Source: Coriobacteriia bacterium (GTDB lineage Bacteria > Actinomycetota > Coriobacteriia > Coriobacteriales > UBA8131). From it: a stretch of DNA of 64,000 bases. Under the pieces are notes generated by a model. The model made no database searches and was not told the origin of the DNA. It was given only the letters and a program-made list of their open reading frames with translations. The stretch is from assembly GCA_009776725.1 (NCBI GenBank), contig WRNE01000002.1:1-64000 (forward strand), read 5' to 3'. A program made the translations under genes and the position numbers. Shown piece after piece: positions 6,988-21,656 of the stretch (positions are counted from its first letter, which is position 1; each line of letters begins with the position of its first letter).

Positions 6988-9834
6988 ATGTGCATAACTA
7001 AAAACTTAAGAACGGGGAAACACATGAATACTAGTCGAGACAGGTTTCCAGGAGTTTACAGCGTCTTAAAGCCTGCCATTATTGTTTTAATCACACTCAT
7101 CCTAGCCCTTGGCATGATGCCTTTAGGCACTCTGACAGCATATGCAGCCGAGCTCGGCCCGGAAATCCAGGATATGCCCAACGACTATCCTGCCGACCAG
7201 CCCGCTGACCAAAGCGGGCAGGTAATTACTGATCCAAGCGACCCGCCAAGCGAAGTAGATCCGCAGGCCATAGACCCTGCCGATAGCACTACCGAGGCCA
7301 TCGAGCCGCTGGCAGTCTATGTCCCAGACCTCTGCTATATTACTTCCGTCGTCAATAAGAGCAAGGCTATCGATATTCCCGGGGCCTCCAAGAACGACGG
7401 GGCGAGAATCCAGTTATGGGACAGCAACACCACTGTTGCCCAACGGTTTCAAGTAATCGCAAACTCGGACGGCACATACACCTTTGTCAACGTCAACTCG
7501 GGCAAGGCGCTAGACGTCCAAGGCGGAAACGCCTTTAAAGGCGCTGTGGTCTGGCAGCACACCCGAAACGGCACCAATGCCCAGAAATGGTATATCACCG
7601 ACGAGGGCAACGGCTATAAGATCTCGTCAAAAATCGACCCCTATTTCGTCTTGGACGTCCCTGGCGCCCAAGCAGTCAACGGCAACCAGCTGCAGTTGCA
7701 CGACAACAACAACACCCCTGCCCAGCGTTTCTGGTTAAACCCGATCACCCGGTCATTGGCCGATGGGGCCTATATCATTAATTCGGCCTCAGGCACCAAT
7801 ATGGTCTTGGATATCGCCGGCGCCTCCTCCCAGGAGGGGACGATTGCCCAGTTCCACACATCCAACCAGACCCTGGCCCAACGCTTCTTGCTGGCCTATG
7901 ACTCAAGCACGGGCTATTACACCATCACCAATACCCAGTCCAACAGGGTCATTGACATCGCCGGAGGGAGCACGGCCAATGGGGCGAAAGTGCAAATCTG
8001 GCATGCCAACGGCACCCCGGCCCAGAAATGGGCAATCCAACAGACCTCCTTTGGCACGTACACCATAACGTCTGGGCATTCCGGAAAGGTTTTAGGGGCT
8101 CCCCCGGGAGGAGCCAACAACACCACCCCTGTCCAGACCTTCCCCTGGTCAGTGGCCCTTGAGCAGCAATGGAGGTTTACCAGCAGCCAAGCTGCCAATA
8201 ACGGGACTTTCGTCTTTAGGGCCGGGGTAGGGACCGTCTTGGACGCCCGCGGCAACGGCACAGGCAACGGCACCGAGGTATGGGCCTTCCAAGCCAATAA
8301 CACGATTGCCCAAAAATTCTATTTGCAGTACGTCTCGGACGGCTACTTTAGGATCGAGTGCCTGAACTCCCAAAAGCTAGTCACTGCACAAGGCACGAAT
8401 ATCGTGCTCTATGAGAACCAGAACCTCAACAGCCAGCTTTGGAGGCTTGAGCCTTGGGGAGAAGGCCGCTTCTTCCTGATCAACAAAGAGTCAGGACGGG
8501 CTTTGGACGTGATCGGCGGCAGCACGGCCTCGGGGGCCGGCCTCCAAGTCCACACCCCGAACCAGACTCCTGCCCAGCAATGGCGGTTCGAGCCGACAGT
8601 GCCTGTAGCCAATGGCATCTATGTGGTAAAAAGCACTGCGTACCCGTCTTTGGCCCTAGACATCCGCGGGAACTCCAGCGCCAACGGCACAAGGCTTCAG
8701 ATACACACTGCCAACAACACTATTGCGCAAGTCTTCCGTTTCTATAACACCTCGGCCTTCAACTATCGGATCACCTGCTTGAACTCCAACAAGTCACTGG
8801 ACTTGGACAGGGGGATACTTAGCCCTAAAGGCATAATCCACCTATGGGCGACAGTCGAGGACAGCCCGAACAACAACCAGGTCTGGCGGGTCGAGTACTA
8901 TGGAGGCGGTAACTACCGGATATTCAGCCAATGCGGGAACGGCAGCTACTGTATGACTATCGAAGGCGGCATCGGCACGGATATCACTGCCACGGCCTAT
9001 GACAGCAACTCCAACAACCAGCGTTTCACGTTAAACGGCTTAGGTGATGCTTATTACGCACCGATGAATATGACTGTCAGCCAAATGGTCAATTGGCAGC
9101 GTTCTAATCCCTATATAAACAATATTACCGACCAGCAGCTAGCAGATGTCATCGACCCCAACAGGGCAATCAACAACTACACCTTCCCTGGCCACTCCGA
9201 GTACACCAACGGCTTGTACCAGTTTGCAGACTTAAGAAGCTACACGGGCCTAAATGCTGGCCAGATCGACGCCATCATCAACAGCTACACCAGTTCCAGC
9301 AGCGCACTTCGAGGCATGGGCTATGCTTTTGAGAGGGCAGCCAGGACTTACAATATCAACGAAGTCTACCTGCTTGCCCATTGTGCGCTTGAAAGCGGCT
9401 GGGGCACGTCCGACCTAGCCCGAGGCTACGACTATAACGGGACGACCCTAGTTGACGGCAGGACTTGGCCGGCTGCCAGGTACCACAACTTCTTTGGTAT
9501 TGGGGCAGTCGACTCAGGCCCCTTGTCCGGAGGGCGCGCGTACGCCATTATGAACGGCTGGGACTCGATTGAAAAGGCTATCATCGGCGGGTGCAAGTGG
9601 ATAGTGGAGAACTACATCTACCGCGATGTCTACAACCTCCCCTATGCGCAGCCCACCCTCTATGCAATGAAGTGGGACTACAATAGAAGCTATTCCATCT
9701 CAGACTATGGCTGGCACCAGTACGCTACAGACCATCTGTGGGCAAGGAAGATCTCAAAGATGATGGGTGATTTCTACAATCAAGTGGGAGCAAAGCCGAA
9801 TCTGACCTATATTATCCCGCAGTACCGCAACTAG
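6988..9834 (+). CDS. Secreted cell-wall hydrolase with multiple ricin-B (CBM13) lectin beta-trefoil repeats and a C-terminal GH73 N-acetylglucosaminidase domain.
   Basis: It has a hydrophobic signal/TM segment and a proline/acidic linker. QxW-type repeats recur more than 12 times (AQRFQV, AQKWYI, AQRFWL, AQRFLL, AQKWAI...). The C-terminus carries the GH73 motifs ALESGWGTSDLAR, NFFGIGA and YATD. An alternative start lies at 7024 (MNTSRDRF). Confidence 0.75.
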   Translation: MCITKNLRTGKHMNTSRDRFPGVYSVLKPAIIVLITLILALGMMPLGTLTAYAAELGPEIQDMPNDYPADQPADQSGQVITDPSDPPSEVDPQAIDPADSTTEAIEPLAVYVPDLCYITSVVNKSKAIDIPGASKNDGARIQLWDSNTTVAQRFQVIANSDGTYTFVNVNSGKALDVQGGNAFKGAVVWQHTRNGTNAQKWYITDEGNGYKISSKIDPYFVLDVPGAQAVNGNQLQLHDNNNTPAQRFWLNPITRSLADGAYIINSASGTNMVLDIAGASSQEGTIAQFHTSNQTLAQRFLLAYDSSTGYYTITNTQSNRVIDIAGGSTANGAKVQIWHANGTPAQKWAIQQTSFGTYTITSGHSGKVLGAPPGGANNTTPVQTFPWSVALEQQWRFTSSQAANNGTFVFRAGVGTVLDARGNGTGNGTEVWAFQANNTIAQKFYLQYVSDGYFRIECLNSQKLVTAQGTNIVLYENQNLNSQLWRLEPWGEGRFFLINKESGRALDVIGGSTASGAGLQVHTPNQTPAQQWRFEPTVPVANGIYVVKSTAYPSLALDIRGNSSANGTRLQIHTANNTIAQVFRFYNTSAFNYRITCLNSNKSLDLDRGILSPKGIIHLWATVEDSPNNNQVWRVEYYGGGNYRIFSQCGNGSYCMTIEGGIGTDITATAYDSNSNNQRFTLNGLGDAYYAPMNMTVSQMVNWQRSNPYINNITDQQLADVIDPNRAINNYTFPGHSEYTNGLYQFADLRSYTGLNAGQIDAIINSYTSSSSALRGMGYAFERAARTYNINEVYLLAHCALESGWGTSDLARGYDYNGTTLVDGRTWPAARYHNFFGIGAVDSGPLSGGRAYAIMNGWDSIEKAIIGGCKWIVENYIYRDVYNLPYAQPTLYAMKWDYNRSYSISDYGWHQYATDHLWARKISKMMGDFYNQVGAKPNLTYIIPQYRN

Positions 9835-9863
9835 TTGATAAAATACATATCAATGCTTGTTGG

Positions 9864-9910
9864 ATGAAAGCCCTCTGGCCTTAAGCAGGCAAGCGGGCTT
9901 TCATTGTTTA
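9864..9910 (+). terminator. Putative intrinsic terminator after the lectin-GH73 gene.
   Basis: A 10-bp stem (atgaaagccc ... gggctttcat) with a 21-nt loop is followed by tgttta. Confidence 0.45.
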
Positions 9911-9929
9911 ATCGGAAGGTACCAATTAG

Positions 9930-12161
9930 ATGAGAAAACCGCATCTCCGTTCTTTATTGTTGTCGATTGCCGTCATTTGCCTATTGGCTGCCCAGTTTCC
10001 CTATGCCTATGCCGACACAGCCGATGATGGCCCTGCCCTTGACTATGGCGATCAAGCCAAGTACCGAAGCGACCAGATTATCGTTACCTATGAAAGCGAC
10101 GTAGAGCTTGAAGGGCTTTTGCCCCTTGTCGAAGACATTAACCAGATAGCCGAAGACCCAGACGGCAACGAGATCGCCGTCGCTCAGATCACTGACCAGG
10201 CCGATGTGCTGGACGTTATTGCCGCTGCCCTTGACGAGCCCGGTGTGATAGCTGCCCAGCCGGATTATATCTATCAAGCACTGGAAGGGACAAACGACCC
10301 TTTACTGGGGATAAACACGTCTTGGTGGTGGCTAGACGCAGTAGATGCCTACTCGGCATGGGACGTCATACAGACCGACCGCCAGCTTACTGTTGCCTTG
10401 TTCGATACCGGGATAAACATCTATCATGAGGACCTGGCAGCCAACATCGACCTTGACCACGCTTGGGATGCCGTCAACAAGCGACCCCTCCTGACGTCCA
10501 TTGCCCAAGACGGGCCAAATGCCTGTGGCGAGCTAAGCGCATCAGGGCACGGCACGCACGTGGCTGGTATCTTAAGCTCTGTGGCCAACAACGGCATCGG
10601 TGGCGCCGGCGTCTCCTATAACGCCATACTCCTGCCAATTCGTGTTTTCAGCATCGAGGGCGGCAGCCTGGTGTCTAGCACTGCCACATTGATCAGTGCC
10701 TATGACTATCTCATCGACCTGCAAGGCTTGGGCGAGCTGATGGGGCTGCGGGTAGTCAATATGAGCCTCGGCGAGTACAGTTCGGGCAACTACGACCAGC
10801 TGCTGCACAATAAAATCATCCAAGCCGAGTCCTGTGGCTTGATGACTGTCGCTGCCGGAGGGAACCTTGGGGTCAGCAACCCGCTTTACCCCTCTGATTG
10901 GCCAGAGGTCTTTTCAGTCGTCCCGATCGATATCAACAACCAAAAGCCTATCAACTACGACCTCAACGCCAACAAGGACATCTGCGCCCCGGGCATCAAC
11001 ATCTATAGCACGAGCTATTCGCTAAGCAGTCCGAGCAATTCGTACTACCAGCCTAAAAACGGCTCGTCGATGGCAGCCCCCATCGTCTCGGGGATTGCCT
11101 GCCTGGTGTGGAGCGTCAATCCTGGCTTGTCGGTCAATGCTGTAAAACAAATACTTCTTGACACGGCAGACAAGTATGGGGCAGAAGACCCGCTGCTTTT
11201 TGGCTTTAGCCGGGTCAATGCCAAATCAGCCGTGGCAGCAGCCGACTCCAGTATCGTCCCTCCCCCGCCGCCGGTTGCTACCTTGGAAGGCTTTTACAAT
11301 ATCAGCTCCGGGGTCGGGAACAGCCTGGTCTTAGACGTTGCTGGCGCATCCTTAGACAATGGCGCCTCGATCATAACCTTTACCAAGAACCATACTGTCG
11401 CCCAGGTCTTCCAGCTGGTCTACGACAGCAGCGACGACTGCTATGTGATCATCAACCCCCGCTCCCAAAAAGCCATTGACGTCCCAGGTGCCAATGCCTA
11501 TAAAGGCGCCCAGCTGTGGCAACACATGCAAAACGGCACCGATGCCCAAAAATGGAGGATCATCGAAAACGACGACGGCAGTTATATGATCGTGACCAAG
11601 CTCGACCCTGGACTTTGTATAGACGTGCCGGGGGCAAGCAGGGAGCCTAGCTCGCATATGCAGCTGCATCCGATAAACCATACGCCGGCCCAGAAGTTCA
11701 GCTTTGGCAAGGATCTTGCCCATACCGTCCCAGAGGGAGTCTATAGCATTGCCCTAGCGAAAGCCCCAGGACAAATGGTCGATGTCCAATGGGGGTCTCT
11801 GTCAGACGGGGCGAACATCCAGCTCTGGGGTTCGAACCACACTGTCGCCCAACAGTTCCATATCTCTTTCGACCCGGTCACCGGCATGTACCAGATGATT
11901 AACGTGGGATCAGACAAGGCAGTCGATGTCGAAGGCGACGGACTGGTCCGTTGCACCAATGTCTGGCAGCATAGGCAAAACAACACCCTCGCCCAACGAT
12001 GGTACTTCGAGCCAGTGGGCAACAGCTACCGGATCTATGCTGCCCATTCAGGGCTGGCACTGGACGCAGAGGGAGCTGGGGTCGTAAACGGGACCAATAT
12101 TTGGATTTTTACCCCAAATCAAACCCCGGCCCAAGACTGGCTGCTTGTCCAAGTGCCTTAG
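9930..12161 (+). CDS. Secreted subtilisin-like serine protease (peptidase S8) with C-terminal ricin-B (CBM13) lectin repeats.
   Basis: A signal peptide is present. The S8 catalytic triad motifs are DTGINIYHEDL, GHGTHVAGIL and GSSMAAPIVSG. A PPPP linker is followed by two beta-trefoils carrying QxW repeats (AQVFQL, AQKWRI, AQKFSF, AQQFHI, AQRWYF, AQDWLL). Confidence 0.8.
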   Translation: MRKPHLRSLLLSIAVICLLAAQFPYAYADTADDGPALDYGDQAKYRSDQIIVTYESDVELEGLLPLVEDINQIAEDPDGNEIAVAQITDQADVLDVIAAALDEPGVIAAQPDYIYQALEGTNDPLLGINTSWWWLDAVDAYSAWDVIQTDRQLTVALFDTGINIYHEDLAANIDLDHAWDAVNKRPLLTSIAQDGPNACGELSASGHGTHVAGILSSVANNGIGGAGVSYNAILLPIRVFSIEGGSLVSSTATLISAYDYLIDLQGLGELMGLRVVNMSLGEYSSGNYDQLLHNKIIQAESCGLMTVAAGGNLGVSNPLYPSDWPEVFSVVPIDINNQKPINYDLNANKDICAPGINIYSTSYSLSSPSNSYYQPKNGSSMAAPIVSGIACLVWSVNPGLSVNAVKQILLDTADKYGAEDPLLFGFSRVNAKSAVAAADSSIVPPPPPVATLEGFYNISSGVGNSLVLDVAGASLDNGASIITFTKNHTVAQVFQLVYDSSDDCYVIINPRSQKAIDVPGANAYKGAQLWQHMQNGTDAQKWRIIENDDGSYMIVTKLDPGLCIDVPGASREPSSHMQLHPINHTPAQKFSFGKDLAHTVPEGVYSIALAKAPGQMVDVQWGSLSDGANIQLWGSNHTVAQQFHISFDPVTGMYQMINVGSDKAVDVEGDGLVRCTNVWQHRQNNTLAQRWYFEPVGNSYRIYAAHSGLALDAEGAGVVNGTNIWIFTPNQTPAQDWLLVQVP

Positions 12162-12228
12162 CATATAATGTAGTCTCAGATAGTCTTAAAAACTGTGGAA
12201 AGCTCAAATCAAATAGGGAGAAAAGGGA

Positions 12229-15144
12229 GTGATGTGCATGAAAAAACCTAACAAAAGGCACATAAGCAAAAGCTCGTCTGCTTTCGTCAGGCTGGCATCG
12301 TTGTTGATAGCTTTTACCTTGGGCTTCTCGAACCTGGGGATAGTATTTGCCGACGATCCGGAAGCTGCTGCCACAGAGCCCGGCGATACAGGCGAAGGGC
12401 TTACTGACGACCAGCAAGTCGACGAAAGCCTACCAAACGATAATGAAGACAGTGCAGAGGCCAGCCTAGACACTGGGACTTTGGAGCCCACGCTTGATGA
12501 TTCTGCAATCGAGCCAATGGCCAGCACTTATCCATATTACGTGGTTTATGAGCCAGAGCAAAACAGCACTATAGTCAATGTCATACTGCCCAATCTCGAC
12601 ATGCTGACGCTGCTTGGCTCTGCTGACTCAGTCACCATTGAGGCAAGCATGGTATACAAAGGGGCAACGACACGAAGCCCCAAAGCCAGTATGGGCCTGG
12701 CCGACCTGCTCGATGCGGGCACAGACAGTTTTACTATGGACTTTGGCGACTTTGGGCGTTATTCGGTCACTGCGTCATTTTACAGAGGTGAGACGCTGGT
12801 AGCTTTAGGCGACACTACCACAGTAGGAGTTACCGCCGACGAGTACAATATCGCCCCAGTCAGCGCTACGTTGCCGGTCCTGTACTTGTCCCTAGCCTTG
12901 TTTGGGCCTGAGTCGATACGTTATAGCGGGCCAAACTCGACTGGAAGCCTGGTGCCGACTATCCTCTTGCTGGAGCGTCCAAGCCACTTTGACTGGAGCC
13001 ACCTGCCCGAAGGCGTCTATGGCTTGCCCTACCTGTCCCAAAGCGAGACCGTATACCAACCGGACGATTTTGGCCAAGCCGGCCAAAAGTTCATGGGCCT
13101 GGCACCAGCCATGGTCGACTATGTAGCCGACCTTTATCTGATGAACCCGGCCTCGGTCTTTAATCTTTATGTGGTTGACTACTACCTTGGCCTGATCCAG
13201 ATGATCATCTACGCCAATGGCATCCCAGCGAGCCAATACACAATCACAGTGCTCTCCGATGGGGCGTTCTCGTATAACCGGTTCAACACGGTATACGAGT
13301 CAGAAGACCCCGGTGCAACGCACGCTGCGATGGTTGCCGAGTGGAATGCAGCCAAGAGCGCTGCCTATGCCAGCCACACCGTCAGCAGCGGGTTTAGCTT
13401 GAACCAGTGCCATGCCTATCTGTACGTTGCAGTCGACGTCGAGGCCAATGCCGTTTGGTGGCTGGCCAGGCCGGCTTTGTTCAGCAGCGGGGACTCGGAC
13501 TCGTTTGCCGACACAGTCCGGGCAAACCCCAAAGTGAAGGCCTATGTGATCTCCAACACAGACCCTGCTACCCCGGGGCGGCTGCAGCTGTTTTCAAGCG
13601 CCGATCAAATTATGTTTATGCGCCTGTTTGACTTCTCTGGCTCGTATTTTTCCGAGGCAGAGGACTCTGGCAAGCAGATCATGGTCTTTCTGGGCACGAC
13701 TATCTGGTTGGAAGAAGGCCATTTCAGCGACTATGCGCGCTTCACCATGGCTTTTTATGGCGACGACTATGCCTATTACTATAAAGGCCACCCGGGCACA
13801 CCGACCGGTATGTATCCGGACAAGCAAGCCGAGCTGGACACACTGGGGATAATCGATGTCGACTCGTCCATACCAGCCGAGCTGATACTGTTCTTTTATC
13901 CGCAGATCCTCTTGTCTGGGTACAGCTCCAGCACATATGCCAGCGTGCCTGTCGGCATGGGCAAGCTCATGTTCAACATGAGCAAGGCCAGCGGAGAGAA
14001 CAGCCCGCTCTATAAGAACATGGACGCCTGGATTACCAGCGTGACGCCTACGACCCCACAGGCCATACGCAGCCTATGTGTGCCTGGGGACAATAATTAC
14101 CTAGTCGAGTTCTCTGATGCATTCGTCAATAGCGTCAACAACGAGTACACCCACGCTATCTGGGATGCGACGGCCTATACCATCACGTATTACCTCTTTG
14201 ACGGCACCTCGTACAGTTTTGTCAGGACTGAGGATGCCCACATCAATGCCTTGGGTGAAGGCCTGTTTGTCATCAGCCCCAAAGTCAACGCCCTTCTGGC
14301 AGTCGATGTCGTTGGCGGGTCCTTGTCCAATGAGGCCTTGATCCAAGCCTGGACAAACAACCAGTCGCCTGCCCAGACGTTTAGACTGACTGCAGTGGGA
14401 AGCGGTTATTATACTATCCAAAACGTCAAATCCGGCAAAATGCTCGATGCCCAATACGGTGGCCAGACACCAGGCACGATGGTGCATCAATGGACTCCGA
14501 ACGGGACCCCTGCCCAAAAATGGAAACTGGTCGACACCGGTGACGGGGACGGCTCTTTTTATATCATATGCGCTAGCAACGGCCTGTACCTGGACATGCA
14601 ATGGGGCGGTTCTCAAGCTGGGACCTATCTGCATCTATGGAACGGGAACAACAGCACGGCACAGAAGTTTTACTTTGACAGATTGACCGAGAATGTAGCA
14701 AGCGGAACCTATAACATAGTCTCTCTTGTCTCTGGGCCAGACATTGACATGGTTATGGATGTGCAGGGCGGTTCGCTCTCGAACGGCGGGGTCATACAGC
14801 TTTGGCACAGTAACGAAACTCCCGCCCAGCAGTTCGAGCTTCGCTACAACCCGGCAAACGGTTACTATTCGATAATCAATGTCAAATCCGGCCTCTACCT
14901 CGACGTAGCCGGGGCAAACCCAGCATCTGAGTCGACCGTCCAGCAGTTCCAAGGAAACGGCACGCCGGCGCAGATGTGGCGGATCCGGCAGAACAGCGAT
15001 GGGTCCTATACGTTCATCTCAGCCACTGGCCGCGGCACAGCGCTTGATGTCCAAGGGGCAAATAACGCCGATGGCGCAAGGATTTGGACGTTTACCCCAA
15101 ATGACACCCCAGCCCAAAAATGGGGCTTGGTACTGCTGCCATGA
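12229..15144 (+). CDS. Secreted protein with an N-terminal domain of unknown function (about 650 aa) and two C-terminal ricin-B lectin beta-trefoils.
   Basis: It has a signal peptide and an acidic low-complexity linker. The large N-terminal region has no motif I can assign. The C-terminus carries QxW repeats (AQTFRL, AQKWKL, AQKFYF, AQQFEL, AQMWRI, AQKWGL). Confidence 0.6.
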   Translation: MMCMKKPNKRHISKSSSAFVRLASLLIAFTLGFSNLGIVFADDPEAAATEPGDTGEGLTDDQQVDESLPNDNEDSAEASLDTGTLEPTLDDSAIEPMASTYPYYVVYEPEQNSTIVNVILPNLDMLTLLGSADSVTIEASMVYKGATTRSPKASMGLADLLDAGTDSFTMDFGDFGRYSVTASFYRGETLVALGDTTTVGVTADEYNIAPVSATLPVLYLSLALFGPESIRYSGPNSTGSLVPTILLLERPSHFDWSHLPEGVYGLPYLSQSETVYQPDDFGQAGQKFMGLAPAMVDYVADLYLMNPASVFNLYVVDYYLGLIQMIIYANGIPASQYTITVLSDGAFSYNRFNTVYESEDPGATHAAMVAEWNAAKSAAYASHTVSSGFSLNQCHAYLYVAVDVEANAVWWLARPALFSSGDSDSFADTVRANPKVKAYVISNTDPATPGRLQLFSSADQIMFMRLFDFSGSYFSEAEDSGKQIMVFLGTTIWLEEGHFSDYARFTMAFYGDDYAYYYKGHPGTPTGMYPDKQAELDTLGIIDVDSSIPAELILFFYPQILLSGYSSSTYASVPVGMGKLMFNMSKASGENSPLYKNMDAWITSVTPTTPQAIRSLCVPGDNNYLVEFSDAFVNSVNNEYTHAIWDATAYTITYYLFDGTSYSFVRTEDAHINALGEGLFVISPKVNALLAVDVVGGSLSNEALIQAWTNNQSPAQTFRLTAVGSGYYTIQNVKSGKMLDAQYGGQTPGTMVHQWTPNGTPAQKWKLVDTGDGDGSFYIICASNGLYLDMQWGGSQAGTYLHLWNGNNSTAQKFYFDRLTENVASGTYNIVSLVSGPDIDMVMDVQGGSLSNGGVIQLWHSNETPAQQFELRYNPANGYYSIINVKSGLYLDVAGANPASESTVQQFQGNGTPAQMWRIRQNSDGSYTFISATGRGTALDVQGANNADGARIWTFTPNDTPAQKWGLVLLP

Positions 15145-15171
15145 CTTAGCTGTTTTTCGCTCATTACGCAA

Positions 15172-15207
15172 AACAATAGGCTGCCTAGGTAGCCTATTGT
15201 TTTATTG
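15172..15207. terminator. Bidirectional intrinsic terminator between convergent genes.
   Basis: A perfect 10-bp stem (aacaataggc-tgcctaggta-gcctattgtt) is flanked by an A-run (5') and ttattg (3'), so it works in both directions. Confidence 0.6.
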
Positions 15208-15303: not shown

Positions 15304-15687
15304 TCAGGTGAAGATCACTTTTCGGTATAAGACAAAGTTCCAGGCCACAATACAGGCCATGGAGATTGTTTTGGCAATTACTGGAAGTACGCCCTGGAGG
15401 GCAAGCATGTAAATCAGGCTTGTGGAAAAGACTTGGTTGAACAAGAAAAGCAGTATATACAATAGCGCGCTTCGATATGGCTTGGCTGTCGATTTGAAGG
15501 AGTAGTTCCGGTTCAAAGTAAAATTGACCGCTGTAGAGCAAGTTATAGCAATCGGGTTGGCAAAGCGGACATCCATCGCAAAGCCCGTGTTGAGTAGGAC
15601 AAAGAACACCAGCTCGATTAGTGCAGAAGCCAGTCCGACGAAAATATAACGTTTAACCTGGGCAATCAGTTCACTGTCGATCTTCAA
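15304..15687 (-). CDS. GtrA/GtcA-family small membrane protein, a putative lipid-linked sugar flippase.
   Basis: The 127-aa protein has 4 predicted TM segments and GtrA-like sequence features (FxxVGxxxxxxE..., NFxLNRNYSF). It overlaps the upstream GT2 gene by 4 nt. Confidence 0.7.
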   Translation of the reverse strand: MKIDSELIAQVKRYIFVGLASALIELVFFVLLNTGFAMDVRFANPIAITCSTAVNFTLNRNYSFKSTAKPYRSALLYILLFLFNQVFSTSLIYMLALQGVLPVIAKTISMACIVAWNFVLYRKVIFT

Positions 15688-16661
15688 TATCTTCTCGGCT
15701 TCTCTGCGTTCTTCTCCCGGTTGACCTCGATCTCATACTGTCTGCGGTTCCCTTTGCTGACCACAGCCATAATGAGGCCGCCGAACAATGACAGAAGGCT
15801 GGCGCAGGCAAAAAACCCAGCAACCAGGGCAATGGGAGAGGCACTGCCTGGTGCTGAGGGTGTTCGAGCGAAGACAGCTGTTAATACCAATATCATGCTA
15901 ATAATGAATAATATGATACTTATAGTGGTCAATAACAGTTGCGGACGATACTCCATAAGCAGCATAAACACTGTCCTTATCACCTTAAACCCGTCCCGGA
16001 AGGTCGATAGCTTTGAAACGCTGCCCTGGGGACGGTCTTTGATCTCGACCGGCACCTCGACTATACGCCAGTTCTTGTCTATGGCATGTATGTACATTTC
16101 AGCTTCTATTTGAAAGCCCTTTGAAAGCACCGGCAAAGTCTTGGCGAACAGCTGGTTCATTGCCCGATAGCCGGTCAAGGCGTCATTGATGCGAAAGCTA
16201 AACAGATTGCTTATGAGAAAGCAGACCAGCTGGTTGCCCAGGAGATGGAAAGCACGCTTGTTCTCGCGGTGATAGCTTTTGTTTGACAGCCGGTCGCCGA
16301 TGACAATGTCTGCCCTGTCCTCAAGCAGAGGGCTTAGCATGGCATGTACTGCCGAGGCAGGATGTTGGCCGTCGCCGTCTACGAGTACATAAAAATCCGC
16401 ATCGATGTCCCGGAGCATCTGTCGTATGACATTGCCTTTCCCCTGCCGAGGCTCAAAACGGACGATTGCCCCGTTTTCCCTAGCTATCCTGGCTGTGGCA
16501 TCAGAGGAGTTATTGTCGTATACATATATCAGAGCGTCGGGAAGCTCGTTTCGGAAGTCACTGATGACTGCTGCGATGGTCATTTCTTCGTTATAGCAGG
16601 GTATCAATATAGCTATCGATGCATTTTCTGACATAAAAGCCCCGTATCTGCAAGCGTCCAC
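15684..16661 (-). CDS. GT2-family glycosyltransferase, bactoprenol/dolichol-phosphate sugar transferase type (GtrB/CsbB/DPM1-like).
   Basis: It has the GT-A N-terminus ILIPCYNEE...YVYDNNSSD...VLVDGDGQHP (DxD region) and a C-terminal TM anchor. The start codon is GTG (revcomp of 16659-16661). Confidence 0.8.
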   Translation of the reverse strand: MDACRYGAFMSENASIAILIPCYNEEMTIAAVISDFRNELPDALIYVYDNNSSDATARIARENGAIVRFEPRQGKGNVIRQMLRDIDADFYVLVDGDGQHPASAVHAMLSPLLEDRADIVIGDRLSNKSYHRENKRAFHLLGNQLVCFLISNLFSFRINDALTGYRAMNQLFAKTLPVLSKGFQIEAEMYIHAIDKNWRIVEVPVEIKDRPQGSVSKLSTFRDGFKVIRTVFMLLMEYRPQLLLTTISIILFIISMILVLTAVFARTPSAPGSASPIALVAGFFACASLLSLFGGLIMAVVSKGNRRQYEIEVNREKNAEKPRRY

Positions 16662-16665
16662 TGTT

Positions 16666-16687
16666 AAACTGATATGACAATCAGTTT
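16666..16687. promoter_or_regulatory. Perfect 8-bp inverted repeat AAACTGAT-N6-ATCAGTTT in the divergent promoter between the GT2 gene and the GT-C membrane protein gene.
   Basis: The repeat is read directly from the sequence. It lies immediately 5' of the GT2 start codon. Confidence 0.4.
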
Positions 16688-16752
16688 ATTATATATAAAT
16701 CATAATTGTAGCTGCCAATACAGTAGGAACGATTCACCATGAATGGACTTAG

Positions 16753-18474
16753 ATGAAGATAAGCGAGATTGTCACCGAAGCATACCTAAACATCGTGCCC
16801 GGCAAGCGCCGCTTGGCCCTATGTGCCGCTCTGGCGGCTTTTTTCTCGTCTGTTACCCTTTTCGGGCGCTCGTTCTATTTTTTAGGATCGGCCTCGGCTA
16901 TGTTTGCTACAGCTTTACAGGCGTTATTGACCTTTTTGTGTTTTATCCTCATTTCCCTCCTCTACCTGCTGTTCTTGTTTGTCGTCTTTAAGGCGATCGA
17001 CGAAAAGGACATTGCCCGATTGTTGGCCGATAAGCACGAGAACAGCCAAAAAAGGCATCAGCCAAGCCTGCTCAGAGCCTTCGAGGAGCACCCAGTGCTC
17101 GTACGCACGTTGATAATCCTTGCCTGCTACCTGCCTTTTCTGGTGATACTCTACCCGGGCAATGTGCCTCACGACGCTTACAGCCAGATAAACCAGTTCA
17201 TGGGGATCATCCCCCTAAGCAACGGCCACCCGGTGGCCTCGACAATGATCATGGGCTCGATCTTCTCCTTTGGCAGGTTTCTGGTCGACGACAATTTTGG
17301 GGTCTTCCTCTATGTGCTTATACAGAGCCTGGCCATGGCCTATACATTCGCTAAAACGATAAGCCTTGCCGACAGCTATGGGTTCAAAAAACTCGCCTGG
17401 TTTGGCCTGGTGTTTTTTGCTGTCTGCCCTATATGGCCTATCTATGCAGCCACAATGATCAAAGACACAATGTTTTTGATCGCTTTTGTAGCGTTTTGCC
17501 TGAGGTTGGTTGGGCTTGTCACGGCCAAAGAAGCCTTGTCCCCCAAATCCTGCCTTACTTTCGTCATCGTCACACTGTTGGTCTGCTGGACAAGGCACAA
17601 CGGCATCTATGTCGTAGTCCCTAGCCTTTTGCTAGCTGTTTTCACTGTACAGAAAACCATGCGTAAGCAAAGCCTCTTCCTATTCGCTGCTGTGGTTGTG
17701 GTTTTCCTGGCATGGTCGAGTGTGGTCCTCCCCATATTAGGCGTCGAGCCGTCACCGGCAAACGAGATGATGAGCATCCCCTACCAACAAACGGCACGGT
17801 ATGTGATCAGGTATGCAGACGAGATCACCGATGAGGAGAAACGCATCATCGACACATCGATCAACTACGACTTGATACCTGAGCTTTACAATCCCGAGCT
17901 GTCTGACCCGATCAAATGGAGCAACTCTTTTTACGGCGGCCCATCCAAAGAATATTTGATACTTTGGTGCAAGATGTTTTTTCGACACCCTTTTACCTAC
18001 ATCAGTGCAAGCTTCCATAACACATACGGGTATTACTACCCATTTGAGAACTTCGACGTAATGCGGTCGTTCCAGCTGTACATCAAGGGCGACCCGGTGG
18101 CTACAGGTGATTTTGACATCCATTATTTGTTCAGCAGAGCCACAGAGGGAGAAAATCCGGACAACCCGGACCTAACGGCACCAAAGGCAGTCATCGACTA
18201 TGTTACCTGGTGGCGCAGTCTTCCGGTTATCCGCAGCCTCACCAGGCCGGGAGTCTATCTCTGGGGCCTATTAGTTGCCCTGGTCTACCTGCTCGACAGA
18301 CGGCAATATGCAAAGCTTCCCGCCATCGTGCCCTCAGCGATGCTGTTCTGCACATGCTTGGCCTCACCGGTCAACGGGCTGCTTCGTTATGCCATGCCTT
18401 ATATGGCTAGCACATTCCTCTTGCTGGCTTTTGCTTTAAAGGATAGTGAAAAAAGCCTATATCTGCGAGAATGA
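16753..18474 (+). CDS. Polytopic membrane protein, a putative GT-C-fold glycosyltransferase (YkcB/ArnT/PMT-like). It is the third component of a GtrABC-type lipid-carrier glycosylation system.
   Basis: The 573-aa protein has about 11 hydrophobic helices in the N-terminal two-thirds and a soluble C-terminal third. It is transcribed divergently from the GtrB/GtrA-like genes. The family assignment rests on architecture and context only. Confidence 0.5.
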   Translation: MKISEIVTEAYLNIVPGKRRLALCAALAAFFSSVTLFGRSFYFLGSASAMFATALQALLTFLCFILISLLYLLFLFVVFKAIDEKDIARLLADKHENSQKRHQPSLLRAFEEHPVLVRTLIILACYLPFLVILYPGNVPHDAYSQINQFMGIIPLSNGHPVASTMIMGSIFSFGRFLVDDNFGVFLYVLIQSLAMAYTFAKTISLADSYGFKKLAWFGLVFFAVCPIWPIYAATMIKDTMFLIAFVAFCLRLVGLVTAKEALSPKSCLTFVIVTLLVCWTRHNGIYVVVPSLLLAVFTVQKTMRKQSLFLFAAVVVVFLAWSSVVLPILGVEPSPANEMMSIPYQQTARYVIRYADEITDEEKRIIDTSINYDLIPELYNPELSDPIKWSNSFYGGPSKEYLILWCKMFFRHPFTYISASFHNTYGYYYPFENFDVMRSFQLYIKGDPVATGDFDIHYLFSRATEGENPDNPDLTAPKAVIDYVTWWRSLPVIRSLTRPGVYLWGLLVALVYLLDRRQYAKLPAIVPSAMLFCTCLASPVNGLLRYAMPYMASTFLLLAFALKDSEKSLYLRE

Positions 18475-18517
18475 CTACATACAAGTAAGTAAGTGTGGCG
18501 TGCTTCTACATTGATAA

Positions 18518-19741
18518 TTGGAGTTGATAAGTGTGAAGATTGTTGTTGCTGGTATGGGCTATGTCGGTTTATCGATTGCCTGTTTATTGGCCCAGAAGAA
18601 CTCGGTATATGCAGTTGATATCATCGAAGAGAAAACCGAACGGATCAATAAGCGCATGCCCATTTTCGCAGATGACGATATCGAGCGGTTCTATGCAAGC
18701 AAGGACTTAGACCTCCAGGCAACTACTAGGCTTTCTGAGACCTTTGCTGATGCTGACTTCCTAGTCATTGCCACACCTACCGACTACGACGACGTCTTGA
18801 ACCATTTTGACACCTCATCGATAGAAAGCGTTTTGTCCGAGGCCTCACAGTATTTTACCAAAGCCGTAGTCGTCATCAAGTCCACTTTGCCTGTAGCCTA
18901 TACAGACAAGCTCTGCGAAGACTTCCCGAACATGAGGATCCTTTTCTCACCGGAGTTCTTACGCGAGGGACAAGCCTTGTACGATAACTTGAACCCTTCG
19001 CGGATTATTGTCGGGGTGCCTGCAGGGCATGCGGAACTGGTACCGGACGCGAAGGCCTTCGCCGGCCTTTTAGCCGAGGGGGCTGCTGCAGACAGGCCTG
19101 ACGGCATTGCCTCGCCTGTAATCCCTGAACTGATCGTAGGAGCTGCCGAAGCAGAGGCCATCAAGCTTTTTGCCAACACCTATTTGGCATTGCGGGTCTC
19201 CTACTTCAACGAACTGGACACTTTCGCTGAAATGCGCGGCTTGAGCACTGCAGAGATCATCGAAGGGGTCAGCTTGGACCCGCGGATAGGCGATTACTAT
19301 AACAATCCCTCCTTTGGTTATGGGGGTTATTGCCTGCCCAAAGACACCAAACAGCTTCTTGCGAATTACCATAGCGTACCTCAGAACCTGATTCAAGCGA
19401 TCGTCCAAGCCAACCAGACCAGGATGGACTATATAGTCAGCCAAATTATCGAAAAGAACCCAAAGCTGGTCGGTATCCACAGGCTGATCATGAAAAGCAA
19501 TTCGGATAATTTCAGGCAAAGCTCCATACAAGGAATTATGGAGCGCCTTAAAAACAAGGGCATACCCTTTCTGGTCTATGAGCCTTTGTTAGACGAGAAC
19601 ACCGCCTATGAGTTCGAATACACCAAAGACCTCCAGCTTTTAAAGGATGAGTGCGACCTGATCATCGCCAACCGGGCCAGTGATGATCTAAAGGATGTAA
19701 TGCATAAGACATACAGCCGCGACTTGTGGCAGCGCGACTAA
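18518..19741 (+). CDS. ugd: UDP-glucose 6-dehydrogenase / nucleotide-sugar dehydrogenase.
   Basis: It has a Rossmann motif (VVAGMGYVGLS) and the catalytic Cys motif (GYGGYCLPKDT). The likely real start is GTG at 18533, preceded by GGAG. The track ORF begins at TTG 18518. Confidence 0.8.
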   Translation: MELISVKIVVAGMGYVGLSIACLLAQKNSVYAVDIIEEKTERINKRMPIFADDDIERFYASKDLDLQATTRLSETFADADFLVIATPTDYDDVLNHFDTSSIESVLSEASQYFTKAVVVIKSTLPVAYTDKLCEDFPNMRILFSPEFLREGQALYDNLNPSRIIVGVPAGHAELVPDAKAFAGLLAEGAAADRPDGIASPVIPELIVGAAEAEAIKLFANTYLALRVSYFNELDTFAEMRGLSTAEIIEGVSLDPRIGDYYNNPSFGYGGYCLPKDTKQLLANYHSVPQNLIQAIVQANQTRMDYIVSQIIEKNPKLVGIHRLIMKSNSDNFRQSSIQGIMERLKNKGIPFLVYEPLLDENTAYEFEYTKDLQLLKDECDLIIANRASDDLKDVMHKTYSRDLWQRD

Positions 19742-19784
19742 TAGGCTTAAAACTGCTTTACGCTGCACCTAGAGTTCGGTAAAG

Positions 19785-21656
19785 CTACCTTCCATGCAGC
19801 CTGTTCCAAGCCTTTTGGACCAAAGGCAACCTATATACCCTGTTTACGAAGCTCTTTGTCTTCAAATAGTCTAAAAGGGTTGTTGTTTGTGGAGGCGCCT
19901 CTATCCTCCGTTCCGTGATCTTTTCGTAGAACGGGGACTTTCTGGCGTGCAGCCAAAACTCCTCAGCGTAATCGGAGTCAGGGGCATTCCAGGGCTTTTG
20001 TTCCCCTGCATAATGAATGATCCTTGGATGCTGGCGGGCTGTCAGGTATTGGGCAGCGACCTCAGACGGAGCCCATTTATTGATCAGCCTGAGACGGCCT
20101 TCACCTAATTGATGGTCGACCATGACGTTCCAGCTCGCATCCAGCAAATGGACCCTGCCTGTGCACAGCTTGTTTAAGACATCCTGGTCATAATAGATAA
20201 AGTCATATGAATAAGCCGTGTTTATCAATGTGTCGAAGTCAAAGCTCTTACGCATCTCTTCTAAGTTGAACAGTAAAACCCCTGCTTGGAAGTATGAGTA
20301 TGGGTCTTGCATGCCAAGGATGTTTTTCGTGTAGTTGTATCTTTGCATGCCATTGTTCAACTGTCTGCCTGGAACCATCAGGTCTTCGTTTATGCATGCC
20401 AAGTAATCAGCATCGATCACAGCTCCCAGCAAATTGTCCCCAATATCTTCATAGTATAAGCTAGCAATATCATCCATTATGATTATATCGCAGTCGAGAT
20501 ACACCACTTTCTTATACCCATGCATAATCTCAGGTATCAGGAAACGAAAGAACGTCTCAATGGTCACATGGCTGATGATGCCTGTAGTGCTCATTTCCTT
20601 GCCTTTGAAATACTCGCTGACATCGATAAAGTCCAGGCTTGCTTGAGGGTACCTGTCAAATTGTTTCTTCAAGGCCTGCTGATGGCCAGGGCTGATGTCG
20701 GTATTGAAGATAAAGACTTGGTATTCGTTTTGAATGCTGGTCTTGTCAAGCAAAGACGACAGGCAGACATCAAGGTAAGGCACGAAGTTGTCATTGGCAC
20801 AAAAAACAATGGGGATCGACCTGTCGCTGGCCGGCTTGATCGTATAAGGCTTCTTGGTTGATTTGAAAAGCACAATATCCAGCTCTTTTAGCTTATGCTG
20901 GCCAAGCTCTTTTTCGTATGTGTAAAAAATCCCAAACAAACGTTCTGCTATATGGCCAGTTGTCCTGAGCATCTGTATCGAGTAATGCGACATGTCTACA
21001 CGTTCTTCGTATACTCCAAGTATGTCAAAGAGCACTGGCAGCCATGTGTCCATCATCGCTTTAGACATAATAAACATATTACATGGATAAAATATATCAC
21101 TGTCGAAGTAAGTTACTGCTGTTTGGTATAGCCAGCCATACCTTTCACGGACGATATCAAGGACCTGGTCAATCGCTGAGTCAGGCAATACATCTGCTTT
21201 GCTCCAGTGCTCGCGGACAGAGACAGCATCTAGAAGGTCTGTTTTTATTGCTGCTGACGTGATGAAGTCAAAGCCACTGACTGCCTCAGAAATCGACTCG
21301 TCGTTCCATTGCAGGTCAAACAGAGCCTCGTCGTTTAAGCTCTCATACTCATAAACCCCATAGTTCTTGACCGCTTTTAAGGCCTGGGGGTTAAATGAGA
21401 ACAGTCTACGATAATGGCAAAAACCATAATAGTCAGCAGCTATGTTCTTCCAAGCCCAATAAAGGACAGTCAGCTCACAGTAACTCTTGTTTCTATATGA
21501 GATGTTCTCACCCTGGTTGTCTAGATACATACGGGAATGAGTCTCGCTTGTCTGGAAGTCCGCTCCAGCAATAACATTGTAGACATATGGAGAATCGATA
21601 CAAAAGTTATCGCTATTCGGACTGTGGGATATAAACAGCTTTATATCGGGATTCAC
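19785..21656 (-). CDS. Two-domain glycosyltransferase with an N-terminal DUF4422-like domain and a C-terminal GT8 (LPS 1,3-galactosyl/glucosyltransferase family) domain.
   Basis: The C-terminal half carries the GT8 features IPIVFCANDNF...YLDCDIIIMDDI (DxD). The N-terminal region is about 280 aa. Confidence 0.65.
   Translation of the reverse strand: MNPDIKLFISHSPNSDNFCIDSPYVYNVIAGADFQTSETHSRMYLDNQGENISYRNKSYCELTVLYWAWKNIAADYYGFCHYRRLFSFNPQALKAVKNYGVYEYESLNDEALFDLQWNDESISEAVSGFDFITSAAIKTDLLDAVSVREHWSKADVLPDSAIDQVLDIVRERYGWLYQTAVTYFDSDIFYPCNMFIMSKAMMDTWLPVLFDILGVYEERVDMSHYSIQMLRTTGHIAERLFGIFYTYEKELGQHKLKELDIVLFKSTKKPYTIKPASDRSIPIVFCANDNFVPYLDVCLSSLLDKTSIQNEYQVFIFNTDISPGHQQALKKQFDRYPQASLDFIDVSEYFKGKEMSTTGIISHVTIETFFRFLIPEIMHGYKKVVYLDCDIIIMDDIASLYYEDIGDNLLGAVIDADYLACINEDLMVPGRQLNNGMQRYNYTKNILGMQDPYSYFQAGVLLFNLEEMRKSFDFDTLINTAYSYDFIYYDQDVLNKLCTGRVHLLDASWNVMVDHQLGEGRLRLINKWAPSEVAAQYLTARQHPRIIHYAGEQKPWNAPDSDYAEEFWLHARKSPFYEKITERRIEAPPQTTTLLDYLKTKSFVNRVYRLPLVQKAWNRLHGR

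Follow-up and report, generated by a model that had tools for sequence, protein, structure and literature searches.

Four proteins encoded in the window, the whole 64,000-nucleotide stretch of DNA analyzed here from an uncultured actinobacterium of gut type in the class Coriobacteriia, carry arrays of ricin-type lectin domains that probably serve as non-covalent modules holding a conserved set of secreted enzymes (GH73, S8, YkuD, and an extracytoplasmic GT80-like protein) on the producer's own wall, a reading to which we assign a probability of roughly two in three. Comparison with relatives suggests, rather than proves, this own-wall anchoring, which would be a role not previously assigned to ricin-type domains. 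The building of the cell surface is little understood in two groups with common gut, oral, and veterinary species among them, the Coriobacteriia and the Actinomycetaceae. If the arrays do anchor to walls, the small repertoire of Gram-positive wall-binding modules would gain a fold, some wall glycan would be implicated as the receptor, and a targeting tag would be gained for probes, display systems, and lysin engineering against these hard-to-study anaerobes.

Architecture and secretion signals of the four proteins

The original prediction had located ricin-type arrays in four ORFs, and all four were recovered on the + strand, with Pfam RicinB_lectin_2 E-values of 1e-95, 1e-44, 6e-63, and 6e-82 for P1, P2, P3, and P4, respectively. 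P1 (7024-9834, 936 aa; 948 aa from an alternative upstream ATG at 6988, the gene call being 7024) begins with sequence features of a signal peptide (aa 1-41) and an acidic, Pro-rich linker (aa 42-94), followed by four ricin-type trefoils (aa 95-668, nt 7306-9027) and a C-terminal GH73 N-acetylglucosaminidase domain (nt 9028-9831). P2 (9930-12161, 743 aa; NCBI MCL2135966.1, 'RICIN domain-containing protein') comprises a signal peptide (aa 1-28), a fervidolysin-like propeptide with an S8 subtilase (aa 29-446), and two C-terminal trefoils (aa 447-743, nt 11268-12158). P3 (12238-15144, 968 aa), for which an alternative start lies at 12229 and the deposited gene starts three codons downstream of the GTG start, has a signal peptide (aa 1-38), an acidic linker (aa 39-88), an Ig-like beta-sandwich with a GT80-like GT-B domain (aa 89-667, nt 12502-14238), and two trefoils (aa 668-968, nt 14239-15141). 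The more distant P4 (36800-39262, 820 aa) contains a signal peptide (aa 1-27), a long acidic linker (aa 28-107), four trefoils (aa 108-686, nt 37121-38857), and a C-terminal YkuD L,D-transpeptidase domain (aa 690-820).

Each protein has a basic N-terminus, then a hydrophobic core, and a cleavage-like site (AYA↓A, AYA↓D, VFA↓D, and AYA↓D in P1-P4). These signal-peptide features led us to reject a cytoplasmic location and indicate that all four are probably exported, as had been proposed along with the observation that the array is the only domain they have in common. None of the four contains an LPXTG/LP.[TSA]G motif, a lipobox, or an extra TM-like segment (KD>1.8, 19-aa window, past residue 60), so any surface retention must be non-covalent. 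P1, P2, and P3 may form one transcription unit, since no terminator-like hairpin was found by consensus scan in the P1-P2 gap (95 nt) or the P2-P3 gap (76 nt). The same scan placed a hairpin with a 15-bp stem at 15170-15203, between the convergent P3 and gtrA genes, although its total of terminator-like sites was not above shuffled expectation.

Ricin-type trefoils and their predicted sugar pockets

Pfam searches returned matches to all of the families named in the original prediction, that is, Ricin_B_lectin, Glucosaminidase, Peptidase_S8, and YkuD. Across the four proteins, bit scores were 151-315 for RicinB_lectin_2 (cut-off 25.6) and 71-144 for Ricin_B_lectin (cut-off 29). We counted 4, 2, 2, and 4 trefoils in P1-P4, which corrects an earlier estimate of two to five, made up of 12, 6, 6, and 12 sub-repeats. 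All 36 sub-repeats are 41-58 aa long, occur in multiples of three per protein, and are closed by Q-x-[W/F] (17 W, 19 F). The expectation of more than ten QxW motifs per protein was borne out, in the form Q-x-[W/F], for the two proteins with 12 each, but not for the other two, with 6 each; strict Q-x-W motifs number 8, 5, 5, and 7 in P1-P4. When an HMM was trained on these 36 sub-repeats and searched against the six-frame translation of the window, only P1-P4 were matched (next best E 1.9), a restriction far beyond chance.

Among structures in the PDB, phmmer matched solved beta-trefoils, of which 3vsf (3e-17) and 3pg0 (1e-16) were closest, with further matches to 8bad, MOA lectins, mistletoe lectin B, HA33, and the Xyn10A CBM13. 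By these sequence comparisons the repeats are of the beta-trefoil fold, and the Pfam ricin and solved beta-trefoil matches together rule out a beta-propeller or other fold. Recent internal duplication was also rejected as the origin of the arrays, the trefoils being 21-47% identical and their best matches lying mostly between proteins.

Pocket residues were assigned in ricin B numbering, with the roles of Asp22, Gln35, Trp37, Asn46, and Gln47 taken from PMC1458353. The equivalent of Asp22 is present in 29 of the 36 sub-repeats, an aromatic at position 37 in 31, and Gln47 in all; the three occur together in 28, and the pockets of 8/36 sub-repeats are degenerate. The aromatic accompanies Asp in 29/29 sub-repeats that keep the latter, versus 2/7 that lack it, a pattern consistent with each pocket being retained or lost as a whole. 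Degenerate pockets in P1 and P4 cluster in the trefoils proximal to the catalytic domain (with 2, 2, 1, and 1 of 3 intact in T3 and T4), and the distal trefoils of both proteins keep 3/3. The residue equivalent to Asn46 is Ala in 29/36 sub-repeats.

Catalytic domains and an extracytoplasmic GT80-like family

The Pfam match to Glucosaminidase in P1 (E 9e-16) is accompanied by a resemblance to the NCBIfam SagB-type glucosaminidase (3e-35, under the curated cut-off), and the catalytic motifs ALESGWG and YATD are intact. P2 matches Peptidase_S8 (E 1e-40) and has the Asp/His/Ser triad motifs VALFDTGI, HGTHVAG, and GSSMAAP, while P4 matches YkuD (E 7e-22) with a His...SRGC motif. YkuD L,D-transpeptidases cross-link the cell's own peptidoglycan, and hence a targeting module on P4 points to the self wall. 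The proposal that all of the catalytic modules act on the wall agrees with the GH73 and YkuD domains, which act on peptidoglycan, but is unsupported for S8. Indeed, neither the S8 protease nor CotH, a partner of ricin-type domains in relatives, is obviously a wall enzyme, which counts against the self-wall reading.

The large domain of P3, previously regarded as uncharacterized, has a GT-B fold for which fold searches placed GT80 structures closest. Residues ~95-665 matched no Pfam or NCBIfam family, and the best PDB phmmer match of the domain was not significant (E 0.068), with 13-16% identity to GT80 enzymes. An alignment-profile search of the PDB using full-length homologues returned no GT80 match, ricin columns having dominated the profile. 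The domain is GT80-like in fold and not a demonstrated member of GT80 (PF11477 unmatched), a family that includes the sialyltransferase PmST1 of Pasteurella multocida and the alpha-2,3 and alpha-2,6 enzymes of Photobacterium. Its YKGHP motif aligns with KGHP of PmST1, and its GYSSST with GVASSL, which we take to be the catalytic His of the His-Pro motif and the phosphate-binding Ser-Ser, respectively, from the roles known for PmST1. Across 68 sequences of the P3 domain family, there is no variation at H430 and P431 and almost none at S476. A further motif, S252-D253-G254, follows a beta-strand in the N-terminal Rossmann half, and its D and G are invariant; compared with the D/E-D/E-G motif of GT80, the first acidic residue is Ser in P3, and D253 may correspond to the catalytic base Asp141 of PmST1.

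We recovered an unexpected family of extracytoplasmic GT80-like enzymes, unannotated and comprising ~270-380 sequence clusters, of which no description was found in the literature searched, where most subscription journals were out of reach. All members are extracytoplasmic in monoderms, bearing a Sec signal, a lipoprotein signal, or a TM anchor. Use of a CMP-sialic acid donor is doubtful, since CMP-sugars are not expected at an extracytoplasmic site in a monoderm. Their genes lie inside loci for wall polysaccharides in Collinsella, Olsenella, Actinomyces, Trueperella, and Firmicutes-like lineages. A bolder proposal, which we hold to be speculative and on balance unlikely, is that the four genes represent a conserved extracytoplasmic wall-remodeling toolkit of Coriobacteriia with a swappable, lineage-specific anchor (ricin, ChW, or choline-binding), the fourth member being a true extracellular GT80-type GT-B enzyme that transfers glycosyl groups. 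Such an enzyme might, for instance, take acidic sugars, nonulosonic or other, from host or polymer donors and attach them to wall glycopolymers, or it might instead remodel phosphodiester-linked polymers. Were this so, both an extracellular GT-B class and a use of the ricin fold would need to be accommodated that are absent from current models of Gram-positive envelope assembly.

Module replacement, gene neighborhoods, and a possible ligand

Homologues of the P3 GT80-like domain carry ricin-type modules in Coriobacteriia, Actinomyces, and Trueperella, and elsewhere carry choline-binding repeats, CWB2, ChW, SLH, BspA-type LRR (LRR_5), or a lipoprotein or TM anchor. The nearest GH73 homologues of P1 similarly bear ricin, DUF5648, SLH, choline-binding, CWB2, SH3_3/SH3_4, or Big_2 domains. 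Neighboring genes share the module type, whether ricin with ricin, ChW with ChW, or choline-binding with choline-binding. Specifically, the ricin neighbors in ricin-type loci are fused to VanW, CotH, or no recognized domain, and a choline-type locus encodes a choline-binding hydrolase-like protein and LicD. Loci of Collinsella encode ChW-GH25, ChW-YkuD, ChW-NlpC/P60, and ChW-C39-like proteins, with 153 ChW ORFs and zero ricin ORFs in 57 loci; the agreement counts come mostly from this one genus, only ~6-7 independent lineages contributing. The Collinsella ChW-YkuD proteins were rejected as orthologues of P4 (BLASTP E 0.04, with the catalytic motif alone aligned), which makes the YkuD parallel one of architecture and not of descent.

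In one relative (L089/L090) all four ricin genes are contiguous, the P4 orthologue adjoining the other three. Identity to the window's proteins is 43-59% in the ricin arrays and 52-62% in the catalytic domains, so that conservation is roughly equal in arrays and enzymes. The partners of ricin-type modules were GH73, S8, YkuD, and the GT80-like domain in the window, VanW and CotH in relatives, and Amidase_2 on unassigned metagenomic contigs; no dietary or host glycan-degrading domain was found among the ricin neighbors examined. A word-indexed search with a double trefoil as query gave 37 proteins, mostly fragments, a sample too small to support a count of partners. One of the Amidase_2 proteins, P0128, ends in a single C-terminal trefoil of the same kind, and its gene lies directly downstream of Phage_holin_5_2 on a 5.7-kb metagenomic contig, a placement which suggests that of an endolysin. 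P0139 has the same architecture. Searches of annotated phage genomes by tblastn gave only two matches, both to unannotated human-faecal contigs, and P0128 as a query found no relatives among viral contigs.

Immediately downstream of P3 are Gtr-like three-component glycosylation genes (15304-18474), encoding a GtrA-family protein (15304-15687, - strand; Pfam GtrA_DPMS_TM, 3e-17), a GtrB-like polyprenyl-phosphate GT2 (15684-16661, - strand; Glycos_transf_2, 3e-17) that resembles AglJ (5e-56) and PpgS (2e-25) under the equivalog cut-offs, and a DUF6020/DUF2142 polytopic membrane protein (16753-18474, + strand; DUF6020, 7e-52). Gtr-type systems include GtrA/GtrB/GtrC, the mycobacterial PpgS system, and CsbB/GtcA/YfhO of Firmicutes. 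The window locus is like them in its grouping of three genes, for a GtrA-family protein, for a polyprenyl-phosphate GT2, and for a large polytopic membrane protein, and unlike them in that the last is a DUF6020/DUF2142 protein, assigned by Pfam and not by a GT-C fold. Beyond these genes, a low-GC stretch (18518-25001; GC 0.43-0.50), defined by Pfam matches and composition, contains further glycopolymer genes, for UDP-glucose dehydrogenase (18518-19741, +), DUF4422+GT8 (19785-21656, -), a nucleotidyltransferase-like ORF (21922-23028, -), and GT2 (23781-25001, +), with a tRNA-Thr near its end (25191-25265, -). The corresponding region in L089 holds other genes (RmlA/B-like, FdtA, DegT, an acetyltransferase, and GT2s). 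The GtrB-like GT2 adjoining the P3 orthologue (60% identical in L089; 52-54% in L003, L010, and L011) is the only conserved neighbor, the rest of the glycopolymer locus varying among relatives with orthologous ricin arrays. The earlier suggestion that the arrays recognize the polymer decorated by this Gtr-like locus is unsupported. Wall-glycopolymer neighborhoods accompany the GT80-like gene whichever module is present. A specific link of the Gtr genes to ricin was rejected, as GtrB, GtrA, or DUF6020 lies close to the GT80-like gene in just a subset of the ricin loci, one that includes none from Actinomyces or Trueperella, and GT2 and GT8 genes also lie beside ChW versions.

For own-wall anchoring, we envisage that Sec would export each protein, the signal peptide then being cleaved off, and that the acidic linker would set the N-terminus apart from the folded domains. 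Through its 5-9 predicted pockets in which Asp, the aromatic, and Gln of the ricin-B site are intact, each protein would attach with high avidity to a repetitive wall glycan, leaving the catalytic domain to act on nearby peptidoglycan or glycopolymer, and the array would fill the role that choline-binding, CWB2, SLH, SH3b, or ChW repeats have in other lineages. From the sequences we infer own-wall binding, its multivalency, and its ligand, and it is only a guess that the last is likelier to be a secondary wall glycopolymer than peptidoglycan itself. Direct binding to the peptidoglycan strands (GlcNAc/MurNAc) of the own wall, in the manner of LysM and with the Gtr-like or any other glycopolymer locus irrelevant to it, seems to us unlikely. 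An invariant ligand of this kind would more easily account for arrays that stay orthologous (43-59%) where the adjacent polysaccharide genes differ, and peptidoglycan is the substrate of GH73 and YkuD, yet the modules that replace ricin include binders of secondary polymers, namely choline-binding repeats (with LicD in the locus), CWB2, and SLH (PMC5817068), and the GtrB-like gene is a conserved neighbor. At the level of single residues, the evidence favors neither ligand.

The usual ligands of ricin/CBM13 domains are glycans of plants, fungi, or hosts, which counts against the self-wall reading, as does the replacement of Asn46 by Ala noted above. The arrays could target foreign surfaces, with released enzymes binding competitor walls or host or dietary glycans, and GH73 and S8 enzymes could serve as weapons; for lysis of live yeast, actinobacterial lytic enzymes depend on a CBM13 at the C-terminus (PMC1458353), and the nearest structures are CBM13 modules of glycan-degrading enzymes (3vsf, 1knl, 3wmy), lectins, and toxins. 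We judge this to be improbable, given that neither a YkuD L,D-transpeptidase nor a glycosyltransferase-like enzyme would serve an evident purpose on a foreign wall, that the same catalytic domains elsewhere bear self-wall anchors (choline-binding, CWB2, SLH, lipoprotein, TM), that the genes sit inside the cell's own wall-polysaccharide loci, and that partners acting on dietary or host glycans were missing from the ricin neighbors. Less credible still is a mainly structural role, in which the arrays would have scant lectin activity, or none, and would act as stalks or spacers that carry the catalytic domains across a thick wall or past it. The general loss of the ricin-B Asn46 and the degenerate pockets near the catalytic domains of P1 and P4 would suit stalks, but 28/36 pockets keep Asp, aromatic, and Gln, the distal trefoils are complete, the joint loss of Asp and aromatic implies selection on the remaining pockets, and a spacer would be senseless in the holin-adjacent Amidase_2 protein, which ends in a single trefoil.

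The likeness to modular wall-targeting systems that had been pointed out gained comparative backing from the module replacement, the agreement within loci, the four-gene cluster, and the holin-linked Amidase_2. As in the non-covalent modules of Gram-positive walls (choline-binding/CWB1, CWB2, SLH, SH3b, LysM, GW, and ChW), tandem repeats occur on secreted proteins without a covalent anchor, are common to several wall enzymes per genome, and lie N- or C-terminal to the catalytic domain; unlike them, the window's arrays are ricin-type beta-trefoils (PF14200/PF00652), for which wall binding is proposed from sequence. The reviews of Gram-positive walls examined list no ricin domain among the wall-binding domains they catalogue, and ChW itself is without a proven ligand (PMC5817068). 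The earlier statement that no ricin-type wall-anchoring system has been described stands for the literature searched, most subscription journals being beyond its reach. The window's sub-repeat motif 'GkaLDV...G..v.qw..nG..nQ.W' also occurs in the CBM13 of the Clostridium thermocellum exo-beta-1,3-galactanase (3vsf) and in the designed ThreeFoil (3pg0), but these are single trefoils, on a plant-glycan hydrolase and a designed protein, with no link to bacterial wall enzymes. The yeast-lytic CBM13 proteins (beta-1,3-glucanases of Cellulosimicrobium cellulans and protease I of Rarobacter faecitabidus) resemble the window's proteins in pairing an actinobacterial secreted glycosidase or serine protease with a ricin-type module, and in a pocket pattern that keeps Asp22, Gln35, Trp37, and Gln47 but not Asn46 (PMC1458353). 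Their module attaches to the cell wall of a microbe and is required for attack on intact cells. These are single trefoils with conserved disulphide cysteines that target the wall of a prey, yeast, whereas the window's arrays comprise 2-4 trefoils free of cysteine, the enzymes that bear them include one that cross-links peptidoglycan, and the genes lie in the cell's own wall-biosynthesis loci.

Ricin-array proteins of the window

Four ORFs, all on the plus strand, had been predicted to carry arrays of ricin-type lectin repeats, and both their positions and Pfam matches on every one of them confirmed this. Specifically, P1 (6988/7024-9834), P2 (9930-12161), P3 (12229/12238-15144), and P4 (36800-39262) matched RicinB_lectin_2 at E-values of 1e-95, 1e-44, 6e-63, and 6e-82, respectively, and Ricin_B_lectin as well. 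The attached catalytic modules were likewise recovered by Pfam, namely Glucosaminidase (GH73) in P1, Peptidase_S8 with a fervidolysin-like propeptide in P2, and YkuD in P4, with motifs intact in each (GH73: ALESGWG, YATD; S8: VALFDTGI, HGTHVAG, GSSMAAP; YkuD: His...SRGC); residues ~95-665 of P3 had no Pfam match. An HMM built from the window's own sub-repeats and run against its six-frame translation matched just these four ORFs (12 sub-repeats each in P1 and P4, 6 each in P2 and P3; next best E-value 1.9). The remaining large ORFs were ordinary chromosomal genes (arg operon, GroEL, LigA, CTP synthase, MurJ, MltG, two-component systems), among which no other wall-binding modules were found. 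The window is a metagenome contig, and its proteins MCL2135966/67/87 are labeled 'MAG: RICIN domain-containing protein [Coriobacteriia bacterium]' at NCBI; as databases already use this label, identifying the domain is in itself no novelty.

Each of the four N-termini has a basic segment, then a hydrophobic core, and then AYA|A, AYA|D, VFA|D, or AYA|D, and acidic linkers containing 26-36% Asp+Glu come after the signal peptides. Because of these signal-like N-termini, and because neither LPXTG nor a second TM-like segment was found in P1-P4, the proteins are very probably secreted and held by no covalent or membrane anchor.

The array sub-repeat is ~47 aa long, with the consensus dG.Y.I.s..sg..LDV.GGs...Ga.iqlw...NgTpAQk[F/W]. 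Altogether, 36 sub-repeats make up 12 trefoils, distributed as 4, 2, 2, and 4 over P1-P4, so that the 2-5 trefoils of the original prediction were slightly off, as were its more than 10 QxW motifs per protein: strict QxW motifs numbered 8, 5, 5, and 7, and terminal Qx[W/F] 12, 6, 6, and 12. Since the trefoils are 21-47% identical to each other and their best matches are usually between different proteins (the first trefoils of P1 and P2, 47%; the second trefoils of P3 and P4, 45%), they represent an old shared module family and not a recent duplication. The closest solved sequences were the CBM13 of the C. thermocellum galactanase (3vsf, 3e-17) and ThreeFoil (3pg0).

Module replacement around the GT80-like enzyme

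In a weak alignment (E-value 0.07), YKGHP of the P3 domain falls on the His-Pro motif of PmST1, the Pasteurella multocida GT80 sialyltransferase, and in the same weak alignment a Glu and a Ser-Ser fall on its CMP ribose/phosphate-binding residues. Sequence comparison did not place the domain within GT80, and we therefore call it GT80-like; no Pfam or NCBIfam model covers it. The His, the Pro, the aligned Glu, and, within SDG, an Asp-Gly do not vary across the family, which comprises, at 50% identity clustering among 1.84 billion representatives, 376 clusters at E<=1e-3 and 268 at E<=1e-10. Every member inspected is extracytoplasmic: some have a Sec signal together with wall modules, others are lipoproteins by their signal or are anchored by an N-terminal TM segment. 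This extracytoplasmic GT80-like family adds to the value of the result.

GT80-like homologues with ricin modules came from Coriobacteriia, Gordonibacter, Thermophilibacter, Olsenella, Actinomyces, Trueperella, and Pauljensenia, and those found elsewhere carry choline-binding repeats, CWB2, ChW (Collinsella, Eggerthella), SLH, BspA-type LRR, or Flg_new. The nearest homologues of the P1 GH73 domain similarly carry ricin, DUF5648, SLH, choline-binding, CWB2, SH3_3/SH3_4, or Big_2 modules. Among these GH73 homologues (P0143-P0177), the DUF5648 (PF18885) fusions are Actinomycetaceae-type proteins of the same GH73 subfamily, in which these uncharacterized repeats stand where a wall-binding module would.

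Agreement of modules within loci was assessed around GT80-like genes, in a non-redundant set of 84 loci. Most of the ChW-type loci are from the single genus Collinsella, so that only ~6-7 lineages in the whole comparison are independent. In the ChW-type loci, 153 additional ChW ORFs were spread over 57 loci and ricin ORFs were absent; the partners included ChW-GH25, ChW-YkuD, ChW-NlpC/P60, and a ChW-C39-like peptidase. No orthology was detectable between the YkuD domains of ChW and ricin proteins. In parallel clusters of Collinsella aerofaciens (L026, 252-12460; L047) and Collinsella sp. An2 (L007, 10001-17966), ChW repeats replace ricin on every secreted enzyme (GH25 muramidase, YkuD, NlpC/P60, C39-like peptidase, and GT80-like); these clusters could help to define the role of ChW, which has no established ligand.

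Ricin-type loci carry ricin-VanW, ricin-CotH, and one ricin-only protein. The VanW-domain protein, with ~4 trefoils, is from an uncultured member of the Coriobacteriia (L008, 3151-5859), and the 1219-aa CotH-kinase-like protein, not an obvious wall enzyme, is from Olsenella (L010, 12855-16511). In a choline-type locus on metagenome scaffold LUND18-1 (L002, 7450-21142), the GT80-like homologue and a neighboring VgrG3-like hydrolase both have choline-binding repeats, and the locus also encodes LicD (phosphocholine transfer), UDP-galactopyranose mutase, GT2s, and an ABC-2 polymer exporter. This locus thereby encodes an anchor alongside the genes that decorate its known ligand.

The YkuD-ricin, GH73-ricin, S8-ricin, and GT80-like-ricin genes were contiguous in two relatives, L089 (1874-13883; JGI 3300002834) and L090 (272-12281; ENA ERZ27257340), with arrays colinear with those of the window and 43-59% identical to them, and catalytic domains 52-62% identical. 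A further locus, L091, has the order DUF6020, 946-aa ricin protein, GT80-like-ricin. The window's YkuD gene (P4) lies 22 kb from the other three, beside ruvX and mltG, and has simply moved away from the cluster. Additionally, P0128 combines Amidase_2 with the same kind of trefoil (LDV...NGT.AQ.W, as in the window arrays) and lies immediately after a Phage_holin_5_2 gene (L088, 3535-4935; Logan SRR33454302 contig). Because of this position and its C-terminal trefoil, P0128 is probably a phage lysis gene (endolysin); P0139 has the same domain architecture.

Proposed wall targeting and its alternatives

An L,D-transpeptidase acts on the peptidoglycan of its own producer. Together with this enzymology, the module replacement, the agreement within loci, the conserved gene set, and the likely phage lysis gene argue for ricin arrays that would target the enzymes to the producer's own wall. 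We give this reading, with the mechanism as follows, a probability of roughly 65%, the comparative signal coming in good part from one genus, Collinsella, and the window census spanning 64 kb. Export would be by Sec; each protein would then be retained by its multivalent array, through 5-9 intact pockets, on a repeating glycan in the producer's wall, where GH73 would trim glycan strands, YkuD form 3-3 cross-links, S8 process surface proteins or wall peptides, and the GT80-like enzyme modify a wall glycopolymer. The original interpretation is supported in part, its analogy to modular wall-targeting systems gaining support from the comparison with relatives. The function proposed is that of the choline-binding, CWB2, SLH, and ChW modules, although the fold differs.

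That the arrays are an inert stalk is very improbable. The equivalents of Asp22, the position-37 aromatic, and Gln47 (ricin-B numbering) are jointly present in 28 of the 36 sub-repeats, and the aromatic is retained in all 29 repeats with the Asp versus two of the seven without it (Fisher probability ~6e-5, of descriptive value only, the repeats being mutually related). In P1 and P4, degenerate pockets are concentrated in the trefoils adjoining the catalytic domain; distal trefoils have three of three intact. It is unlikely that the arrays direct the enzymes to foreign or host glycans, in the manner of the CBM13 of actinobacterial yeast-lytic enzymes. These enzymes are the closest ricin-module precedent, and the yeast-wall-binding modules of Cellulosimicrobium share the pocket pattern, including the loss of Asn46 (PMC1458353), the equivalent of which is Ala in 29 of our 36 sub-repeats. 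The yeast-lytic CBM13 binds the wall of prey and consists of one trefoil with disulphide bonds; it has no link to enzymes building the bearer's own wall (PMC1458353).

Slightly less doubtful is a variant of the own-wall model in which the arrays bind peptidoglycan directly and the neighboring locus is irrelevant. Downstream of P3 are GtrA, a polyprenyl-phosphate GT2, and a DUF6020/DUF2142 membrane protein. The GtrB-like GT2 is a conserved neighbor, 60% identical in L089, where it follows the four-gene cluster shared with L090, and 52-54% identical in Gordonibacter and Olsenella loci. Because no Gtr genes were present within 10 kb of the Actinomyces and Trueperella ricin loci, and GT80-like genes of the ChW and choline types likewise sit among wall-polysaccharide genes, the link is one of the GT80-like enzyme to glycopolymer synthesis in general, by which no candidate for the ricin ligand is either singled out or eliminated. 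The original proposal, in which the arrays would bind the polymer decorated by this Gtr-like locus, was not supported by these comparisons.

The terms ricin, trefoil, and CBM13 are absent from broad reviews that cover surface display in Gram-positive bacteria, wall hydrolases, and the architectures of autolysins. A full-text literature search found no ricin-type wall-anchor system described in Coriobacteriia or endolysins. Ricin as a wall anchor is plausible, testable, and apparently undescribed, if not startling to a specialist.

Genome composition near the locus

Window positions 18001-26000 form a low-GC stretch (0.43-0.50 versus 0.51-0.60 for most of the remaining window) that holds genes for a UDP-glucose dehydrogenase, a DUF4422+GT8 protein, a nucleotidyltransferase-like protein, and a GT2, and that stops close to a tRNA-Thr (25191-25265, minus strand). 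L089 has a dTDP-sugar/FdtA-type locus in its place, and its ricin arrays are nonetheless orthologous. The stretch looks like a variable polysaccharide island, possibly horizontally exchanged.

Between P3 and gtrA, which converge, a hairpin with a 15-bp stem and A-rich/T-rich flanks (15170-15203) could terminate transcription in both directions; the short P1-P2 and P2-P3 gaps had no comparable hairpin. Finally, the strongest AT skew of the window (+0.19) was at 30069-32546 (plus strand), which encodes an 825-aa protein with an N-terminal TM segment, an SPFH/Band-7 domain (aa 56-234), a long Ala/Glu-rich region that is probably a coiled coil, and a C-terminal extension that is acidic and rich in Pro and Ser.
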